DNA of 64,000 nucleotides from a bacterium (lineage in GTDB: Bacteria; Bacillota; Clostridia; Christensenellales; DTU072). Location of the stretch: contig CAVIQK010000003.1 in the NCBI GenBank assembly GCA_963644945.1, positions 54,401 to 118,400 on the forward strand, in the 5' to 3' direction. The position numbers and the translations under genes are program-made. The notes beneath the pieces are model-generated. The model was not told where the DNA came from. It did not search any database and worked only from the letters and a program-made list of their open reading frames with translations. Position 1 is the first letter of the stretch; each line of letters starts with the position of its first letter. Shown piece after piece: positions 10,546 to 57,513 of this stretch.

Positions 10546-13500
10546 ATGGAACTAAAACAACTCACTCTCGGATTTTCGTCAAAAAACGTGACAGAATTTG
10601 ATTTTGCACGCATCAACGATACGTTGTCTGTTGCTACCGGTGGCAATACCAAAGTGTTTCGTGACGGACTTTCGACTGCACTGTTTGGTTTTTCTGGAGA
10701 AAACGGTGACTCTGCACCGTTCAAATTTACCAAAATCACATTTGAAGAAAAAGATGCCGAACATATTTTGATTAGAGTCTTAGAAAAGGACGACGAAAAG
10801 ACCATCTATACCGAAGACGGCAAAGAAAAACCGATAGAAGATTTCTATGCAATACTCAAAAAAGAACTGAAAGCAGATCCGGAACTAGTGAAGAAATATT
10901 CGTTTGCCGAAGAAGATCTCGTCAACGAAGTGTTAGAAAAAGGTCTTGCCGGATATTTGTCTTATATTCCCGATATCGAAGAAAGAATAGAAGAAAGTTA
11001 CAAAAATGCTTGCGAAAGGGAACAAGAATTAGAAGAAAGACTTGTCCACTTGTCCAATTTTGAAGGAGTCGGTGGCGGACGTAATGCCCTTGTTGAGATA
11101 GACAAAGATATTCACGTTTTGGAAAATGCTCTCGACAATATAAGCGAAGACATAGCAAGAGGAGAGTCCGAAACCAAAACGGGCTACGAAGTACTCAAAA
11201 ATTCTGCAAGATTACAAGAACTTGAAGATATGGAATCAGACATGAACCACATCGAAGAGTACATCAATCTTTCAAAGAAAGCCAAAAACATTTTGGATCT
11301 CGAGGCTAGAGTTATCAAACTTGAAAATTCTGCGGTTTCCGGAAGAAGGACCGACGGGGACATTGCTCTACTCAAAGCAAAAGTTGAAAATCTTAATCGC
11401 CAAATCGCCAAATTTTCCGAAGAACAACGTAAATCCGAAGGCGAAGTTATCTATTATGCCGAAAAATTACAAGAACTTCGTGGCGACATAAAAGGTCTTG
11501 TCGAAGTCACCGCATCGGGTTCGACCGACGACGTAGAAACCGAAGTCGGCGAATATTACGAAGAATTCAAAAATGCCAAAGAGTCATACGAGGAAAGACT
11601 GAAAAAGGTAGAACTCGAAAGGAATGCTCTCTATGAGCATATCGCCGAGTTGGAAACAAGAAGAGGAAAAATCGCCTATCCTGTTGCTTACAGAAAAGCA
11701 GTCATTGATGCAGTGACATTAGAAGATCGTATGGCGGACATGAGCGCCCTTGCCGAAAAAGAAGAAAAAGTCATAGGCGAAATTGTCGAAGAAATAAAGA
11801 AAAAAGAAGAAGAATTCAAAAAACTTTCGGATAAAGCCGAAGATTTGGAAAAAGCGGCGGCAGAACTTCTTGCCGAGATATCCGGAGATTACGAAAGCAA
11901 GGAAGATCGCTTTAATGCCGAAAACGTAGAGAGAAATAAACTTTACAGCAATCACATAATCGTCAACGAGCAAGTTAGAGAAATTAAAGCCATCGAAGAT
12001 AAAATCAAAAAACTTCAAGAAAGCCAAAGAGAATTCCAAGACAAGAGAGCAAAACTCAACGATGCCAAAGTCGAGGTCGAACTCCACAAGGCAAAACTCA
12101 ACAAGCGTCTCCGTCAAATGGAAGACAAGTACAACGAGAGAATTGCCGAAAATCTCTATGCTCAACAAGTCGAATCTTTGAATTATGGCGACAGATGTCC
12201 TATATGCGACGGTTTTGTTATCAAGAAAAACGCAAAACTTCGTTTCATGAAAATGGATGACATTATTGCCGATATGGATGCAATAAAGAAAGCCATAGAA
12301 GAAGACGATTCCAAAATATCCAGAGTCCTTCTAAAACTAGGTGCATATATGTCAGCATCGGCATCCGGCGATGCTTATATCAATTCACTCGAAGACACTA
12401 GACAGAAAAAACAAGATGCGGTAGATGCATTCTGTAAAGAAAGCGGAGTCGAAACCCCTCCGGAACTCTCCGATAAACTAAGAAAAGCCATAGAAAATCA
12501 AAGGGATACCAACGAGAAGGCTGAAAAATATCACGATTTGGAAGGCCGTCTTGCATCTGTTTTGGAAGCGAAAGGAAGAGTTGCTTTCCAAATCAAAAAG
12601 ATGACAGAGTTAGAACTCGGACGTCACCAAAGAGCGCTTGACGATTACAAGTGTTCGGTTAGATCCGCAGTTGACGAATATCGTCCCGTTATGAAAGTTT
12701 TAGGCGGAGAAAAGGGCAAAGATGTCTATCCGAAACTTATGCTCGTAGATAAAGAATTGGAGACAATATCGGATGACCTAGAAAGTGCAAGAAAAAGACT
12801 TTCCGCAACCGACAAAGAAAGAGAAGACATCAACAAAACTCTTGCAATATTTGACGGTAGAGATCTCCCCATCGGAGACGGTGGCGAAAATGTCAATGTA
12901 GCGGGACTCGGTGCCAAGGTTATTGCCAGAAGGTTGAAAGCAATGACCGACGAAATCAAAAAATACGAAGACGAATATGAAAATGCCAAAGTCCGTTTTG
13001 TTGCCGCAAAACGTGTCGTTGACAACTATTCAAGAGAGAAATACAACATTGAAAAAGACCTTCTCGTTTCCGATGAATCGGGAAAGGCAGTCGTATCTTC
13101 CGACGACTCGTTGAGAAAAGAAATCGACGAAGGAGTCAAATCTCTCGGCATGCAATCTGTCGAAGAACTTAAAGACGTGGTTATAGCCGACGACGACGAA
13201 AGAGCCTTGGAAGCAATAATTGCAGGATTTAGAGGCGAACTCAACATGCTAAGGGGAGCCACTTCCGTTGTAAAAGAAACTCCCGAAATCGATGTTGAGG
13301 AACTTAAAGACAGAAGAAAACAAATACGTGAAGCGATCTCCGAAATGTATCAAAAGAGAGCAACGCTTAAAATCGGTATTGATGCAGCAGATAAAAATGA
13401 TCGTCAAAAAGACGAGGCACTACTACGTTTGAAGAGAGTAAGAGCCGACATAAGAGAACTTGACACAATCAAAACCTATATTGAGGACGGAACTCTAAAT

Positions 13501-24528: not shown

Positions 24529-25743
24529 ATGATATTAGCAGGTGAAGGGCTTGGTGCGACCGTCGTCAACTTTATAAAAGACATGTGTGACAAAATCGGT
24601 TTTACCTCGGCAGGACAAAGATTTATCGCTCTCGCAATCGTCGGCACAGCGATTGTTTTGTTGGCATTTATTATAGCGCTTTTGAGTACTCTCGGCAGCA
24701 AAAAGAAAAAAGAAACCAAAAAATATAAGGTTGCTAAAGAATTTTTGGATACAAACGGCGAAATCACCGAAGAAAACATCGAACATCTCAACCCTTATAT
24801 TCAAGATATGAGTGCGAATATCTCCTCCGGATGGGGAGAATTCCTTGCATCGGATTCTGCCAACGATTATCCTTCCGACTATATGAAAGCCGAAAAGGTT
24901 TTTGGCAGTGCAAAACAAGAGAAATCTAGGACGGGCAAGACTTTCTTTGCCGCCGTATCCATGATAGGTGTTTTGGCTGTTGCATTTTTAGGCGCTCTCT
25001 TGTCTAGATCCGAAGGCGTTCTAGACGTTTTAAGTGCCGGCACGATAATTTATCTTCTTTTTGATATTATATCGGTCATCGTATTCCCGTTGATCGCATT
25101 TATAGTTTTCTCTCTAATTTTATCGGCAGTCAATCGAGGAATTACCAAAAAATCATACAAGGCATACAACGAATTTATATCAACCCTTGACGATGTCGTA
25201 GTTATCTCCAAAGAAAAACCCGAAGAGAAGACCGAAGAAGAAGTCAAAGTCGATGAGAAGATTGACCTTCTCGATGACGAAGTCCAAAAAATAATCAATT
25301 CCAAAATCGAACAAAACGAACTTATCGAAATTGTCACAACTCCTAGAGTTCGCAATGTCGAAGAAGAATCTGAAGTCGTCCTTCCCGAAATTGAAAAAGT
25401 CCAAGATCCTACGGATGTTAGCGACGTAGAACTCAAAGACGACGAATTTGAAGAAATCCCGCTTCCGTCAACCGAATCGTTGTTTGACGACGATGACAAC
25501 AAAACGGAAAAACCTCAACAACAAGTCCAAGAAGAAAAGAAAGAAGAAGAAAGCCAATTGCAAGGACTAGTTGCTCTTGTCGAACAAGCAGTCGCAGATG
25601 TCAAAGGTACGACTAAAGAAGACTTGACCGAATTGGCAAAAGCCATCAAAGAAGCACAAACAGACGGAAGATTCCCTGATCCCAGAGATCAAGAAATCTT
25701 AAACGAATGTAGATACAAAATACTAAACTTATATTATCAATAA
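24529..25743 (+). CDS. Membrane protein with about 4 TM segments and a very acidic C-terminal tail, function unknown
   Basis: AGGAG Shine-Dalgarno upstream. TM segments (FIALAIVGTAIVLLAFIIALL; FFAAVSMIGVLAVAFLGALL; IIYLLFDIISVIVFPLIAFIVFSLIL) are followed by ~190 aa of E/D/K-rich low complexity. Confidence 0.55.
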   Translation: MILAGEGLGATVVNFIKDMCDKIGFTSAGQRFIALAIVGTAIVLLAFIIALLSTLGSKKKKETKKYKVAKEFLDTNGEITEENIEHLNPYIQDMSANISSGWGEFLASDSANDYPSDYMKAEKVFGSAKQEKSRTGKTFFAAVSMIGVLAVAFLGALLSRSEGVLDVLSAGTIIYLLFDIISVIVFPLIAFIVFSLILSAVNRGITKKSYKAYNEFISTLDDVVVISKEKPEEKTEEEVKVDEKIDLLDDEVQKIINSKIEQNELIEIVTTPRVRNVEEESEVVLPEIEKVQDPTDVSDVELKDDEFEEIPLPSTESLFDDDDNKTEKPQQQVQEEKKEEESQLQGLVALVEQAVADVKGTTKEDLTELAKAIKEAQTDGRFPDPRDQEILNECRYKILNLYYQ

Positions 25744-33325: not shown

Positions 33326-33355
33326 TTGACAACAATACGGAATCTTTGATAAAAT
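33326..33355 (+). promoter_or_regulatory. Putative promoter (TTGACA - 18 nt - TGATAAAAT) driving an apparently leaderless gene
   Basis: TTGACA at 33326..33331 and extended -10 TG-A-TAAAAT at 33347..33355. ATG 33363 lies 7 nt after the -10 with no Shine-Dalgarno. Confidence 0.5.
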
Positions 33356-34555: not shown

Positions 34556-34672
34556 ACAAAAGTATGATGCTGTTTCAGCGTCGTTTAGACATACATGTTT
34601 TGGCGAGTGTGTTGCAAATCAATGTAAATAGTGCATCCGCCGTAAGCATGTCAAAAACAACAAGGATAAAAG

Positions 34673-35860
34673 ATGGATCAAAGACCAAGACAATCTACCG
34701 GAAGACCTCTGCCCAGACCTCAAGGTGCAAAACCGAAAGGATATCCCGTAGCAGTAAGACGCCCTTCTGCTCCCACGGTACAAGCAAAAAACGGCAGACC
34801 TCAACCGCTAGGCAACAAAAAGAAAAAGAGAAAACGTAAAGAGAGTGATTTCTTTTACATACACAACAAAGGTGTGTGTTTTCTCATGTTTTTGACAAGT
34901 CTTGTCATGCTTTTGGTAGTGGCTATCAATTTTGCCAACATGGTCCCGTCCCTTGCCGAAAACGAAATGATAGGCAAAGTTTTGTCTTATGCGAGTGTCT
35001 ATAAAGAAGCCGACTATACGCCCTATGACGTAAGAGAACAAGCAACGGTTTATGACGAAGACGAAAATATCGTCGAAGAATACGAAGATCAAAGCAAGTA
35101 TTATCTTGCAGGAGATCTTTTCATGGGTTCTCTCAATGCGTTGACGGGTAAAGGCGCCAACGAGGCAGTGTCCGGCTCCGAAGAAGAAATCATCTCTAAA
35201 ATAAAAGCGTATGCGGAAGAAACGACTTCCGGCTCCGAGTCCGGTTCATCGTCGGGTACCGCATCGGGTACAGAAGAAGACGAGGAAGAAACCGTAGTCG
35301 AGACCTCTCCTCTTTACGACAAATATGCATTGAAAAAAACCGAAGCAATAAGCAAGTACGAAGGCTACGAAGGAAGTATCGTATTTACGATAATCTCTTA
35401 TGCTCCGTTGACTATAGCCTTGTATGCAGTGATAGCCCTTGTCATGATGATCAAATCCTTCCTTGCTTTATTTGGCAGAAGAATATTTAGAGGATTTGCC
35501 TTAGGCTCAATAATTTGCGTAGTTTTAGCGATAGCCGTTCTCATGGTAGGCATCTCATTTATTTCGCTAGACACTGCCGTTTACAACGAGAAAGACACTC
35601 TGAGCCTAGAATTCGGACAAGTTGCCGAATTTGCTACAAGTGCATTTACTTCGCCCTATGCGACACTAGAAGAACAAACCACCGCCGACGAAGAATTTGC
35701 CACACTGCAAGCAACACAAAAAGAAGAAGAACAAACAGTATCTATAAAATTGCCCATCCAGACAAATTACGGTATCTACATTTTGATAGCCGTCCCCGCA
35801 GTCACTTTGATATTGTCACTGTTCTCAAAGAAAAAAATTCCTTACGCTATTTTCGATTAA
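34673..35860 (+). CDS. Operon A polytopic membrane protein (395 aa): poly-basic Pro/Arg/Lys N-terminus, 4 TM, S/T/G/E-rich loop; paralog of 55975..57312
   Basis: N-terminus RPRQSTGRPLPRPQGAKPKGYPVAVRRPSAP...GNKKKKRKRKES. TM1 is VCFLMFLTSLVMLLVVAINF. The loop contains TSGSESGSSSGTASGTEEDEEETVVE. Three further TM helices follow. No known domain recognised. Confidence 0.6.
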   Translation: MDQRPRQSTGRPLPRPQGAKPKGYPVAVRRPSAPTVQAKNGRPQPLGNKKKKRKRKESDFFYIHNKGVCFLMFLTSLVMLLVVAINFANMVPSLAENEMIGKVLSYASVYKEADYTPYDVREQATVYDEDENIVEEYEDQSKYYLAGDLFMGSLNALTGKGANEAVSGSEEEIISKIKAYAEETTSGSESGSSSGTASGTEEDEEETVVETSPLYDKYALKKTEAISKYEGYEGSIVFTIISYAPLTIALYAVIALVMMIKSFLALFGRRIFRGFALGSIICVVLAIAVLMVGISFISLDTAVYNEKDTLSLEFGQVAEFATSAFTSPYATLEEQTTADEEFATLQATQKEEEQTVSIKLPIQTNYGIYILIAVPAVTLILSLFSKKKIPYAIFD

Positions 35861-35870
35861 AGGAGACATT

Positions 35871-36140
35871 ATGTGTTTTAGAAAGAAAAAAGTTCAAGAA
35901 AATCCTCCGCAACAGCCGACAGAACAAAAAGCACCGGCATACAAACCCGTCAAAGTGTTTTACGGCAGAGTGCAAGACGGAATGATCCCCGCAGCGAGAG
36001 CATCACAACACGTGCAACTCACCCCTATTGTGACACCTATCACAATGGTCCCGTACATGTCCACCGAAGCAGGACTTTTTGTCTATGCGGACGACGATGA
36101 CGAAGATGACGAAAGAGAAGAAAACTCCGATCAACAATAA
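35871..36140 (+). CDS. Operon A small protein P89 with conserved VQLTPIV-P---VPY module and poly-acidic tail
   Basis: AGGAGA Shine-Dalgarno upstream. Begins MCFRKKK. The module VQLTPIVTPITMVPYMSTEAGLFVY at 36012..36086 is followed by ADDDDEDDEREENSDQQ. No signal peptide or TM. Confidence 0.6.
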   Translation: MCFRKKKVQENPPQQPTEQKAPAYKPVKVFYGRVQDGMIPAARASQHVQLTPIVTPITMVPYMSTEAGLFVYADDDDEDDEREENSDQQ

Positions 36141-36353: not shown

Positions 36354-36677
36354 ATGAAAAGAAGAAGAAAAGACACTATTGAAACCACCGAAATAGTAGG
36401 AGGGTACAGAGCCCCTCAAGCCCCCGAGTTTTATGCATCCGGCGAAGGACATTATGTTATAAATATGCCTAAGGCCTTGCCTGTTGTCAACATGGTGGAC
36501 GAAAACGGCAATTTATACCAAGCACAAACATTTTATAGACCTCTCCCCAACAGTTCTCCGGTAGCCGTCCCCACACCTCCTTCGGTTGTCCAATTGACAC
36601 CGATTGTGGCGCCGATGACAATAGTTCCGTACATTTCACAAGAACAACCTCTTTATCAATACGACGACGAAGATTAA
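36354..36677 (+). CDS. Operon A small protein P107 with conserved module and acidic C-terminus
   Basis: GAGGTAGGA Shine-Dalgarno upstream. The module VQLTPIVAPMTIVPYISQEQPLYQY at 36588..36662 is followed by DDED-stop. The upstream segment DENGNLYQ...VPTPPSV parallels GPDGNIYC...IPTPSSI of the next gene. Confidence 0.65.
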   Translation: MKRRRKDTIETTEIVGGYRAPQAPEFYASGEGHYVINMPKALPVVNMVDENGNLYQAQTFYRPLPNSSPVAVPTPPSVVQLTPIVAPMTIVPYISQEQPLYQYDDED

Positions 36678-37698: not shown

Positions 37699-37929
37699 AT
37701 GGTTTTTGAAAAATGTGTAGAAATTATTGCAGATATGCTCGGCATTGACGAAAAAGAAATCACGATGGATGCAGACATCGTCAACGGACTCGGAGCCGAC
37801 AGTCTTGACGTAATCCAAATGCTCAATGCAATGGAAGAAGAATACGGTTTCACTTTTACCGATGATGAAATACTTACCATCAAAACGGTAGGAGACGTCG
37901 TCACTTTGATAGAAGGCAAACAAAAATAA
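37699..37929 (+). CDS. acpP: Acyl carrier protein
   Basis: 76 aa with AGGAGA Shine-Dalgarno. Canonical phosphopantetheine site LGADSLDVIQMLNAMEEEYGF. It starts 12 nt after the preceding gene and is followed by a terminator. Confidence 0.85.
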   Translation: MVFEKCVEIIADMLGIDEKEITMDADIVNGLGADSLDVIQMLNAMEEEYGFTFTDDEILTIKTVGDVVTLIEGKQK

Positions 37930-39025: not shown

Positions 39026-39607
39026 TTATTGCCGTCCTTTTATAAGAACGGTAATTTTTTTAAGAGTAGGAATAAGCACCATCGTCAAAATAAAGTTTAA
39101 TATAAATACGGCAGATTGAGTGCCTAGTCTATAAACAAGATATGCCCAAAAATTATCATAAGATTTTCCGTATCCTGCGACAAAATAAAGCCCCATTGTG
39201 TTTATAAAAGCCGTGCATACGACAAATGAAACCATGTAAGAAAGGATACAATGCAAATAAGGTTTCAGCACATAATCTTTTCTGGGCGGAAGATATTTGA
39301 TAAGCCCCGGAATAACTCCAAGCAAGCAAGAACCGACAAAAATAACAGGGTTAGGTGTATAACCGCTAATAAAACACCCGATGAGATCGGCACCGCCCCC
39401 GACAATTCCTCCCGAAAACGGCCCTAGAATATAGCCTGCCAAAAAACAAATCGTATAAGACAGTGTTATTTTTTGACTGCCGAGCCTTGACGAAAAAGCA
39501 CTTATTGCCACATTTATTGCAAGTAGCATGGCGGTAGTTGCGATTTTGGTGGTGCTAAGCCCTCTCTTTTTAGAAGGTGATTTGCCCCCATTGCAATTTT
39601 GTGTCAT
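39026..39607 (-). CDS. folT: ECF-transporter S component, folate family (FolT-like)
   Basis: Start taken at Met38 of the track ORF (MTQNCNGG), behind GGAGG. It is a small protein with about 5-6 TM segments (TTAMLLAINVAISAF, YTICFLAGYILGPFSGGIVGGGADLIGCFI) and lies directly downstream of a THF riboswitch. The track's N-terminal extension is the riboswitch read as protein. Confidence 0.75.
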   Translation of the reverse strand: MTQNCNGGKSPSKKRGLSTTKIATTAMLLAINVAISAFSSRLGSQKITLSYTICFLAGYILGPFSGGIVGGGADLIGCFISGYTPNPVIFVGSCLLGVIPGLIKYLPPRKDYVLKPYLHCILSYMVSFVVCTAFINTMGLYFVAGYGKSYDNFWAYLVYRLGTQSAVFILNFILTMVLIPTLKKITVLIKGRQ

Positions 39608-39657
39608 AAAAAAACCTCCATGGGAAATATCCCGTATAAGAGGTCCGAAAAAATAAT

Positions 39658-39765
39658 ATTTTAGCGGACGCGACAAGAAACCGCGGTTAAAACCTTTCGT
39701 CCGTAAACAACATCCCATTTTACGGCACTACAAGAAAATCTTACGCTTCTTATCTACTCTATAGG
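39658..39765 (-). promoter_or_regulatory. THF (tetrahydrofolate) riboswitch, class I (RF01831-like)
   Basis: Minus strand: ATAGAGTAGATAAGAAGCGTAAG...CCGTAAAATGGGATGTTGTTTACGGACGAAAGG...CGCGGTTTCTTGTCGCGTCCGCTAAA. It matches the conserved blocks of the Eubacterium siraeum THF aptamer as I remember it (AGAGUAGAUGAUUCGCGUUAAG / AAUGGGAUGU / ACGAAGC / CGCGGUGAAUCAU..CAUCCGCU). Compensatory changes occur in P2 (AAGAAGCG:CGCGGTTTCTT) and P3 (CCGTAAA:TTTACGG). Coordinates are good to +/-3 nt. Confidence 0.85.
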
Positions 39766-55971: not shown

Positions 55972-55974
55972 TAT

Positions 55975-57312
55975 ATGGAAGAAAAAACTCAAAATCAACA
56001 AGAGTTTCCCGTTATAACCGTTCCGTTCAGCGCTTTGACCAATCCTCATCCGATTGTGTTCAAAGAGAAGAACGTAAAATTTATTGACAAAAGAAACAAC
56101 AGGGAAGAATCTGATTCTACCTATAATACTCAGGAGGATTCGTCTATGAAAGACAAAGAACAACGTGGCCAACAATACGAAGACACGCAAGTCGAAGACA
56201 ACCAAGCCGAAAGAAACACTTCAGACCAACCGTTTACCATCTATGTTAGAGGCAATATGGCAACCGAAGTGTATAGACGTGCAAGAAATGCCGCCTATGC
56301 ATCTTTTGACGACGATTATGGTATGCAAGAAGTTGCATCGACAAGACGTCGCAATCCGTCTTATTACGATCAATCCCAAAATCAAGGACGTAGACAAGAC
56401 GAAAAAGGCAACGGAAAAGCCAAAAAAGAGAAATCTAAAAAGGGTAAAGTCGTTGGATACGAAGCAAGACGTCCGGTTTTGTTCATTGTCGCCCTCTTGG
56501 TTATAGCAGTTCTTGTTGTCAACGTGCTTGCAGTAGTCAAGATTATGCCCGACTATACCGGTATGTTCATTACTAGAAGCATCGCCGAAAATGCCGGCAC
56601 AACCGAGACCGACGAAGACGGCAACGAAATAACATATCCTACCCATATCGCAAGATCTGCGGTGGATCCCGTAATGAGTTTGATTTCGTATATCAAAGGC
56701 GATAAAAACGCAACATGGTCCGAAGATGATATGATTTCCCAATCTTTCTTCACCGACTGTTTTGTCAAAATAATGGCTGATTCTCAAGAAGCAACAGACG
56801 AATCTGCAAGCGATGAAGCCGAAAGCGAAACCAAAACCACTGCCTATGCAGAAGAAACCTCTACTTCTTCGGGATCGGAAACCGAAACCGCTACCGCCGA
56901 AGAATCCGGAGATTCCACAACTTTGGTTCGTACCATTTGTTATATAGGTATGCCTATTGTTATTGTACTCCTATTAGTAACAATAGTTCTTCTAGTAGTC
57001 AAAATGCTCATCGCATTGTTCTCCGGAAGAAAAGTAAAATACGGATTCTTGTTCATCACATCCATTTTATACTTGGTCCTTATCGCAGTCGTTACACTTG
57101 TTTGGAACGAACAAGGACTCCAAGAAGCAAAACTTGTCTTTATGGCACCGCTCAAAGCATTCGGAATGGAGGTCAACAATGCGTCCTTTGCATCCGTAGG
57201 ACTTGGATTCTACATCAATGTTATAGGTTTACTCGTTGCATGGTTCATCTCGGCGTTCGCATACAAAAAAGTTCGTCAGGAAGTTTCTCCTGCACCCCAA
57301 TATAGAAGATAA
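55975..57312 (+). CDS. Operon B polytopic membrane protein (445 aa), paralog of 34673..35860
   Basis: The N-terminus has a module-like FPVITVPFSALTNPHPIVF (56005..56061). A basic cluster GNGKAKKEKSKKGK precedes TM1 (VLFIVALLVIAVLVVNVLAVV). The loop contains ETSTSSGSETETATAEESGDSTT. Three more TM helices follow. Confidence 0.65.
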   Translation: MEEKTQNQQEFPVITVPFSALTNPHPIVFKEKNVKFIDKRNNREESDSTYNTQEDSSMKDKEQRGQQYEDTQVEDNQAERNTSDQPFTIYVRGNMATEVYRRARNAAYASFDDDYGMQEVASTRRRNPSYYDQSQNQGRRQDEKGNGKAKKEKSKKGKVVGYEARRPVLFIVALLVIAVLVVNVLAVVKIMPDYTGMFITRSIAENAGTTETDEDGNEITYPTHIARSAVDPVMSLISYIKGDKNATWSEDDMISQSFFTDCFVKIMADSQEATDESASDEAESETKTTAYAEETSTSSGSETETATAEESGDSTTLVRTICYIGMPIVIVLLLVTIVLLVVKMLIALFSGRKVKYGFLFITSILYLVLIAVVTLVWNEQGLQEAKLVFMAPLKAFGMEVNNASFASVGLGFYINVIGLLVAWFISAFAYKKVRQEVSPAPQYRR

Positions 57313-57324
57313 GGAGTAAGAAAA

Positions 57325-57513
57325 ATGGCAAAATTCAAAAAAGTAAAAGTAGAATATGTTATCCCCAATGCCGGCATCAACCCTGCCCCCAGAGCAGTCA
57401 GCCCTCTAGGAGTACAACTTGCTCCTGTTACCGTCCCGATCCCGATTGTCCCGTATATGGCAGAAGGTGTCCTTGCAACCCAAGGTGAAGACGAAGAAGA
57501 CGATTACGAATAA
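57325..57513 (+). CDS. Operon B small protein P62 with conserved module and acidic tail
   Basis: AAGGAG Shine-Dalgarno upstream. The module VQLAPVTVPIPIVPYMAEGVLATQ (57412..57483) is followed by GEDEEDDYE-stop. Confidence 0.6.
   Translation: MAKFKKVKVEYVIPNAGINPAPRAVSPLGVQLAPVTVPIPIVPYMAEGVLATQGEDEEDDYE

Follow-up and report, generated by a model that had tools for sequence, protein, structure and literature searches.

LetA modules combine a cytoplasmic zinc ribbon with a four-helix domain that most resembles the TARPs and claudins (PMC13017536). A single gene or a pair of adjacent genes encodes the modules of LetA and PqiA, and the finding that the tetraspanin superfamily occurs in prokaryotes is very recent (PMC13017536). 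Here we analyse a group of four-helix (tetraspan) membrane proteins encoded in a 64,000-nucleotide (nt) stretch of DNA from a bacterium of the Christensenellales (GenBank assembly GCA_963644945.1, contig CAVIQK010000003.1, positions 54,401 to 118,400). This stretch is called the window, and coordinates refer to it unless a locus number is given. The analysis centres on two proteins, P395 and P445, which by profile comparison are distant paralogs of one unannotated family. Their genes lie in two operons beside genes for small acidic-tailed proteins (P89, P107 and P62) that share a short module, here called the VPY module.

P395 is a protein of 395 amino acids (aa) encoded by an open reading frame (ORF) at 34673..35860 on the + strand, and belongs to class C3 of the five classes described below. 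P445 is 445 aa long as called (55975..57312, +) and is of the C2 type. Both lack the VPY module, and a Kyte-Doolittle scan gives four transmembrane (TM) segments in each. The 66-residue N-terminus of P395 contains 19 Lys/Arg and 3 Asp/Glu, and directly before TM1 it carries the polybasic cluster KKKKRKRK (residues 49-56; 34817..34840, +). The cluster is followed by the motif ESDFFYI (34841..34861, +), which is conserved in the alignment of the P395 family and in the C3 proteins derived from other loci, and by TM1 itself (residues 67-88; 34871..34936, +), placed by hydropathy and by the AlphaFold2 (AF2) model. Loop 1 of P395, between TM1 and TM2, has 162 residues with 11 Lys/Arg and 33 Asp/Glu and includes an acidic low-complexity tract rich in Ser, Thr, Gly and Glu (the S/T/G/E tract; 35207..35302, +). 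TM2 and TM3, again placed by hydropathy and AF2, are joined by the short basic loop GRRIFRGF (residues 243-299 in all; 35399..35569, +). The third loop is acidic, and TM4 leads into the C-terminal tail KKKIPYAIFD (35768..35857, +), in which K388, P390, Y391, I393, F394 and D395 are invariant among 14 homologs.

The same charge pattern is found in P445, which has a basic cluster before TM1 (KGNGKAKKEKSKKGK, residues 144-158; 56404..56448, +), an acidic S/T/G/E tract in loop 1 (56842..56922, +) and a TM2-TM3 loop, SGRKVKYGF (57022..57048, +), that is the counterpart of GRRIFRGF. Both ORFs and all of the peptides quoted in the original prediction, including the acidic ends of P89, P107 and P62, were recovered in place. 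The positive-inside rule is an established principle of membrane-protein topology. In P395 and P445, Lys and Arg are gathered in the N-terminus, the TM2-TM3 loop and the C-terminus, and Asp and Glu in the remaining two loops; by the rule both proteins are therefore predicted to have their N- and C-termini inside, with the basic clusters cytoplasmic and the S/T/G/E tracts outside. The cytoplasmic placement is also predicted from the homologous P400 class, because it bears an N-terminal zinc ribbon, a cytoplasmic domain. The check proposed with the original prediction, that the clusters should face the cytoplasm, thus came out in its favour.

P395 stands out among the 48 non-overlapping ORFs compared in the window, with the densest basic stretch of ten residues (8/10); 2 of 20000 shuffles of the P395 sequence reach this density. 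The corresponding stretch of P445 is less extreme (6/10, equalled in 580 of 20000 shuffles). The two densest acidic ten-residue stretches in the same set belong to P89 (9/10) and P62 (7/10). A 404-aa ORF (24529-25743, +) has the second-densest basic stretch (7/10) as well as a dense acidic one (6/10). In the C3 proteins the basic cluster belongs to a conserved motif, in which a Lys/Arg-rich run is followed by E-x-D-[FY]-F-[FY].

By BLASTP, P395 and P445 match with only 28 bits (E = 4e-4, single comparison), and the match is confined to the low-complexity loop. This speaks for the view that the two proteins are alike in composition only, through their TM helices and acidic low-complexity loops, and are not paralogs. 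The S/T/G/E tract gives this view a second point in its favour, since it has no positional conservation: in a 15-sequence alignment over both families it falls on one side or the other of the conserved Tyr215 column, depending on the lineage. The AYAEET match picked up by BLASTP is hence coincidental, and we rejected the shared AYAEET/S-T-G-E tract as a homologous position. Of the claim that both proteins share such a tract, its presence in each holds good and its positional equivalence does not. As judged from this alignment, the tract is a labile compositional feature of loop 1. The C3 proteins of two relatives (loci L008 and L006) have perfect tandem TDGE or ETDG tetrapeptide repeats in loop 1, which shows that the acidic tract grows by repeat slippage.

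Profile methods give a different answer from BLASTP. A word-index search of a set of 5.8 billion proteins returned 14 homologs of P395 and four of P445. In an hhalign comparison the two family alignments match along 179 columns, which begin at TM1 and reach the TM2-TM3 loop, with a probability of 98.2% (E = 6e-14). Restricted to the TM domain, C3 scores 110 against the P445 family, and the reversed-profile control scores 24. HMMER, run exhaustively against 1.84 billion representatives with the P395 profile, found 71 proteins at E <= 1e-3, among them a representative of the P445 family (E = 1.3e-4), and P445 itself obtains 50+ bits against C3 proteins from other genomes. In the 15-sequence alignment Y215, P245, F275 and G367 are invariant and the loop ALF-G-[RK] is common to both families. 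Within the 14-homolog alignment of P395 the invariant residues of this region are F267, G268, R270 and F275, the last being invariant across C2 and C3. Scores so far above the reversed controls, invariant columns in 15 divergent sequences, the cross-genome matches and the conserved positions of the genes within one cluster effectively refute the compositional explanation. The paralogy and common layout that the original prediction had proposed are thus borne out by the profile alignment.

The wider distribution of the family was explored by a pattern scan with the C-terminal tail motif KKKIPYAIFD, using one genome per GTDB species. The scan found 27 loci, all in uncultured Christensenellaceae, Christensenella, "Candidatus Stercoripulliclostridium" and Clostridia metagenome-assembled genomes; NCBI places Stercoripulliclostridium in Eubacteriales incertae sedis. 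Locus L020 (CAVIFU010000049.1) holds a full cluster of the Christensenellaceae type although it is labelled Ruminococcus bicirculans, probably through a binning or labelling error. The family is small, with 71 representatives for the P395 profile and 152 clusters for that of the related protein P331, and on this sampling it is restricted to Christensenellaceae-type Clostridia.

In most of the 27 loci the genes of both window operons are united in one cluster, with the order glnS - C1 - C2 - small a - C3 - small b - C4 - small c - C5 - acpP - secE - nusG - rplK, where a, b and c are small-protein genes. The median gaps are 72 nt between C1 and C2, 20 nt between C2 and small a, 255 nt between small a and C3, 27 nt between C3 and small b, 70 nt between small b and C4, 99 nt between C4 and small c and 6 nt between small c and C5. 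The C1 proteins consist of a zinc ribbon, the VPY module and the four-helix domain. C2 and C3 have the four-helix domain only; C4 (about 225 aa) and C5 have the module followed by the four-helix domain. P395 and P445 belong to this family both by profile homology and by their position, between glnS and acpP and beside VPY-module genes. Loop 1 is long and acidic in C3 (median 171 residues, net charge -38) and C2 (97 residues, -19.5); in C1, C4 and C5 the medians are 35-55 residues and -2 to -4.

The window encodes a C1 protein, P400 (54769..55971, +), with a double zinc ribbon (Pfam DZR, Zn_Ribbon_1) ahead of the module and the four-helix domain, and a C5 protein, P331 (36691..37686, +), in which the module is fused to the same domain. 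In hhalign comparisons of TM domains C3 scores 240 against C2, C2 118 against the P445 family, C3 91.5 against C5 (reversed 22.6) and C5 89.7 against C1 (reversed 19.6), with reversed controls of 20-44 overall. By these profile scores all five classes share a homologous four-helix domain. The statement that each operon contains one such protein has to be corrected, since the four-helix domain is also present in P331 and P400 and each window operon accordingly encodes two tetraspan proteins.

Some loci depart from the typical cluster. L007 (4446-5135 and 8411-9139) and L026 (11070-11816) have extra module-less four-helix paralogs and small module genes, and in L026 a 141-aa zinc-ribbon protein (12642-13067) takes the place of small c. 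At the position that C4 occupies in relatives the window has P65 (36140..36337, +), a small protein of 65 aa without the module. P65 shares the N-terminal sequence MCFRKK with P89 and is conserved in the closest relative only (counterpart at L001 11334-11525).

In the window P400-P445-P62 comes after glnS, and P395 to P331 comes before the acyl carrier protein (ACP) gene. The two transcription units lie apart, 17 kb from each other, and C4 has been lost; the closest relative (L001/L028) likewise has separate units and no C4. The best explanation is that the ancestral locus was a single cluster between glnS and acpP-secE-nusG, which the window genome split at an internal terminator and promoter. 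In relatives the 255-nt spacer before C3 holds a terminator-like hairpin followed by a conserved promoter-like element, TTGAAA / TG-n-TAAACT, and the cluster is predicted to form two transcription units with the break between small a and C3. Promoter-like sequences of the form TTGAAA-17-TATAAT, each agreeing with the consensus at 11 of 12 positions, lie upstream of P395 (34527..34555, +; this one with TG) and upstream of P400 (54690..54718, +). An Rfam scan gave no match in or near either operon. In several relatives a perfect 16-nt palindrome, ATTTATAATTATAAAT, lies downstream of the promoter-like element and ahead of the C3 gene's Shine-Dalgarno site (L004 2646-2661, L008 9935-9950, L013 4965-4980 and L014 9936-9951), and near-identical sites occur in L002, L016 and L020. 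This palindrome, a possible operator, is missing from the 5' leader of P395 in the window (34556-34672).

The VPY module is 26 residues long, with the consensus IVQLTPIVQPIALVPYSSQNQPLAQY, and a profile hidden Markov model (HMM) was built from 136 copies of it. This profile finds exactly five copies in the window, in P331, P400 (25.8 bits) and the small proteins P107, P89 and P62. P89 is small protein b (35871..36140, +; 28.7 bits) and its gene begins 10 nt after that of P395. P107 is small protein c (36354..36677, +; 34.7 bits), 13 nt before P331, and P62 is small protein a (57325..57513, +; 18.3 bits), 12 nt after P445. P395, P445 (residues 11-29 included), P65 and all C2 and C3 proteins obtain no score with the profile. 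None of the small module proteins has a hydrophobic segment. After the VPY motif they continue, in the median, into a tail of 19 residues with 7 Asp/Glu and no Lys/Arg, which is often rich in Tyr; P89 and P62 follow this plan of a module and an acidic tail.

Synteny strongly supports the link between these small proteins and the module-less classes that had been suggested from the window alone. A small module gene comes after C3 in 25 of 28 loci (median gap 27 nt), with a degenerate 69-aa copy in L015, and after C2 in 17 loci (median gap 20 nt). The juxtamembrane segments of the module-less classes are also the most basic, with medians of 10 (C3) and 8.5 (C2) Lys/Arg per 30 residues and of 4-5 in C1, C4 and C5. 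The fused C4 proteins run from the module through an acidic/Tyr tract and KKKK into TM1, and C2 proteins hold an acidic/Tyr tract beside the basic cluster in cis.

It had been suggested that P445 starts with a module-like stretch, FPVITVPFSALTNPHPIVF (56005..56061, +). This stretch is not a module, since it obtains no score with the 136-module profile even with filters off; it is absent from all three P445 orthologs and probably lies upstream of the real start. The orthologs begin with MKDKE, which corresponds to M58 of the window ORF, and P445 read from this conserved start occupies 56146..57312 (+), with a conserved Shine-Dalgarno site, AGGAGG, 8 nt upstream. In the closest relative (L028) the corresponding spacer measures 44 nt; it has stop codons, and a conserved AAGGAGG comes after them. 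In the window the spacer from the P400 stop codon to the conserved start (55972-56145) is 174 nt long and open in the P445 frame, which accounts for the 57 extra N-terminal residues of P445 in database gene calls. The extension is open only in the window lineage, where strain variants are 99% identical and too alike to show selection, and it is probably untranslated.

AF2 models were made for two of the proteins. The P395 model, from 14 sequences, has a mean predicted local distance difference test score (pLDDT) of 64.7 and contains four TM helices, with short strands in loop 1 and before TM4. Residues 161-210 fall below 50, and the acidic tract is modelled as disordered. The P331 model, from 98 sequences, is more confident (pLDDT 81.5 overall and above 90 in the TM domain), with one strand before TM1, in the segment equivalent to ESDFFYI of P395, next to two after TM4, and with others after TM1 and before TM4. 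Its module region is at about 52, which is to be expected in an otherwise confident monomer if the peptide would need a partner. By homology with P331 we infer that the conserved motifs ESDFFY(I/V) and IPYAIFD of P395 form a small cytoplasmic sheet beside the basic cluster.

In our preferred reading a hetero-oligomeric tetraspan assembly would include P395 and P445 as subunits that lack the VPY module and obtain it in trans from the small proteins encoded next to them, and the basic cluster would be topogenic and possibly a docking site. We give this reading a probability of roughly 0.45. The paralogs would form a hetero-oligomeric membrane assembly, in which C1, C4 and C5 would carry the module in cis on their cytoplasmic N-termini, and C2 and C3 would be provided with it by a co-translated small protein. 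In the fused paralogs the acidic and the polybasic segment are joined covalently; the acidic tail of the small protein and the polybasic segment of P395 or P445 would then be the separate halves of that junction. The basic cluster would also set the N-in topology, and the long polyanionic loop 1 would be an extracytoplasmic insertion, labile in evolution, that only C2 and C3 have. Because C4 fuses module, acidic tract, KKKK and TM1, docking of the tail on the cluster is a reasonable route by which the small protein might be recruited. Charge pairing is possible in that the basic clusters and the acidic tails are both predicted to be cytoplasmic; that the tails dock on the basic clusters in particular, as the original prediction supposed, nevertheless strikes us as doubtful.

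Several observations weigh against the hetero-oligomeric assembly with a module supplied in trans. Across genomes the acidity of the tail does not covary with the basicity of the cluster (Spearman rho -0.02, n=23; -0.34, n=15). The numbers of modules and four-helix domains are not strictly matched, being 6/6 in L007, 5/6 in L026 and 6/5 in a typical cluster. C5 has a module of its own and yet small c lies 6 nt ahead of it, so replacement of a missing module by a small protein is not the whole logic. Gene fission would predict the colinear order of small a and C3, which are about 255 nt apart and on separate transcripts, and not that of C3 and small b. The most basic N-flanks coincide with the longest and most acidic loop 1, in C3 and C2, which a purely topogenic role of the flanks would also predict. 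Finally, the P395 model is only moderate in its pLDDT.

The lack of covariation and the coincidence of basic flanks with acidic loops are also what would be seen if there were no specific charge pairing at all. The polybasic segment, in proteins whose external loop is very acidic, would then be a strong topogenic signal of the positive-inside kind or would anchor them to anionic lipids, and the acidic, Tyr-rich tails would be spacers or solubility tags, or would bind something else; they might keep the hydrophobic VPY module off the membrane, and the small proteins may simply share a pathway with the tetraspan proteins. The distribution of Lys and Arg fits the positive-inside rule fully, the pairing of the most acidic loop 1 with the most basic N-flank looks as if the flank were holding the topology, and the acidic tract of C4 can be read as a cis linker. 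Two facts are left unexplained, namely the acidic-tailed module gene that follows each module-less tetraspan gene by 10-30 nt in about 25 genomes, and the place of the basic cluster within a conserved motif, [KR]n-E-x-D-F-F-Y, which goes beyond a bias of composition. We regard the absence of pairing as a serious contender that falls some way short of even odds.

Another reading changes the partners. By operon, the original prediction would pair P89 or P107 with P395, and P62 with P445; this would be wrong if the true partner of P395 were instead the class a small protein, here P62. In relatives small a does precede C3, an order colinear with the module, acidic tract, KKKK and TM1 of the fused C4. 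The spacer of about 255 nt between these genes, with its terminator-like hairpin and promoter-like element, argues against such a partnership, and in the window genome the two genes are now 17 kb apart and neither has been lost. The step from C3 to small b is moreover tighter and nearly universal. On balance this exchange of partners seems improbable.

The genes around P395 and P331 deserve a brief description. P354 (33363-34427, +) has a hyper-acidic N-terminal region of 257 residues, 74 of them Asp/Glu, followed by two TM segments, and a promoter-like site precedes it at 33326-33355. Its gene lies directly upstream of P395 here and in the closest relative (L001 8722-9702) but not in other relatives. 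The acidic region of P354 is probably cytoplasmic, and its gene adjoins that of the polybasic P395. The ACP gene (37699-37929, +; NCBIfam, 77.8 bits) encodes an ordinary acyl carrier protein and directly follows C5 here and in the relatives examined. A tetrahydrofolate (THF) riboswitch (Rfam RF01831, 58 bits; 39660-39763, -) is located upstream of an ORF for a protein with multiple TM segments (39026-39718, -).

The Christensenellaceae are among the most heritable and health-associated bacteria of the human gut, and to our knowledge their cell biology is almost unstudied. The eight-gene cluster described here keeps a fixed housekeeping position, between glnS and acpP-secE-nusG, in every related genome found, and it combines one four-helix domain in five paralogous versions with one peptide in six copies. 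The naturally fused and split versions of the module and the tetraspan protein offer a ready system for the docking of a cytosolic peptide on such a protein. As to function, a role as a cell-envelope scaffold or in transport is our guess. If the kinship of fold with claudins, TARPs and LetA is true, the cluster would widen the reach of the tetraspanin superfamily in prokaryotes (PMC13017536).

Searches of known families give few matches. With Pfam (the cluster proteins of the window and of L002, and three family alignments) and NCBIfam (the window proteins), the only matches to reach threshold are the ACP and the zinc ribbons, the latter in P400 and in its homolog from L002. A match of one ortholog to DUF6560 is below the cut-off (25.3 against 27.8 bits) and is not relied on. 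The two family profiles searched against the PDB by sequence have no relatives there, and we found no description of the cluster in the literature. A look-up of cluster members brought up a single label, 'hypothetical protein'. No described family or system matches it, which does not by itself show an unprecedented mechanism.

Pairs of domains that are split in some proteins and fused in others are used to infer protein partners, by what is called 'Rosetta stone' logic. The cluster resembles such pairs in that the VPY module is fused in C1, C4 and C5 and is encoded by a separate adjacent gene beside C2 and C3. It differs from them in that the small genes lie downstream and are not colinear, and in that C5, which bears a module, also has a small module gene next to it. 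The polybasic segments of P395 and P445 likewise resemble ordinary positive-inside juxtamembrane segments, with a Lys/Arg cluster at the cytoplasmic end of TM1 and acidic, Lys/Arg-poor loops outside. They depart from these in the unusual density of the P395 cluster, with eight consecutive Lys/Arg inside a conserved motif, and in that the cluster is strongest in the paralogs without a cis module, whose genes are coupled to those of acidic-tailed proteins.

Among described bacterial systems LetA/PqiA comes nearest, by its architecture only. Like LetA and PqiA, the cluster proteins have a predicted N-in four-helix domain with a small extracytoplasmic beta element, and in P400 a zinc ribbon is N-terminal to it. 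The homologous modules are again encoded side by side and presumably hetero-oligomeric, and claudins and TARPs head the structure searches: they are the top Foldseek matches of the P395 and P331 models, although at a best E of 0.09, a TM-score of at most 0.45 and a root-mean-square deviation of about 9-10 A these matches are not significant. One could accordingly see in the cluster a LetA/PqiA-like lipid transporter made of tetraspan modules from adjacent genes, in which C1 gives the zinc ribbon and P395 and P445 are ribbon-less. LetA does combine a zinc ribbon with a TARP/claudin-like four-helix domain and can be split across adjacent genes (PMC13017536), and the double ribbon of P400 does precede its four-helix domain. 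However, hhalign scores of all class profiles against Escherichia coli LetA are 12-22, equal to those of reversed controls, LetA is not among the Foldseek matches listed for either model, and Pfam finds neither the PqiA family (PF04403) among the cluster proteins nor the MCE domain of the LetB/PqiB partners in the cluster genes of the window or L002. Such a transporter is thus very improbable. The Cys-rich ribbon is lacking in P395 and P445, and only their paralog P400 has the DZR, with the module and a linker between it and TM1. Further differences from LetA and PqiA are the host, which belongs to the Clostridia and not the Proteobacteria, the number of paralog classes (five, in place of two modules), the VPY peptide module and an acidic loop 1 of huge size.

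A broader view takes the cluster to be a multi-subunit tetraspan machine, not recognised before, of one bacterial order, either a prokaryotic counterpart of claudin, TARP or tetraspanin scaffolds or a LetA-like transporter adapted to bacteria with a single membrane. On the cytoplasmic side its subunits would be tied by the VPY peptide, in cis or via acidic-tailed adaptors docking on the polybasic segments, and the long polyanionic loops of P395 and P445 would project into the cell wall. We hold this to be speculative and on the unlikely side.

P395 and P445 are not filed here under claudins, tetraspanins or LetA, because the tests of membership failed or were not significant. In tetraspanins of the CD81 type the large loop is between TM3 and TM4 and there is a CCG motif; in P395 and P445 the large loop is between TM1 and TM2 and the CCG motif is missing. 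The claudin signature W-GLW-C-C is likewise not found, there being no Cys pair or GLW in loop 1, and matches to Claudin_3, SUR7 and CD20 are sporadic and below threshold. The proteins also differ from claudins in being bacterial. The predicted topology is nevertheless that of the claudin, PMP22, TARP and LHFPL proteins, with four TM segments, an N-terminus inside, a large loop 1, a short basic TM2-TM3 loop, a smaller second external loop and a cytoplasmic tail. Short strands are modelled from loop 1 and just before TM4, and by analogy only the tail KKKIPYAIFD may recall the C-terminal docking peptides of claudins.

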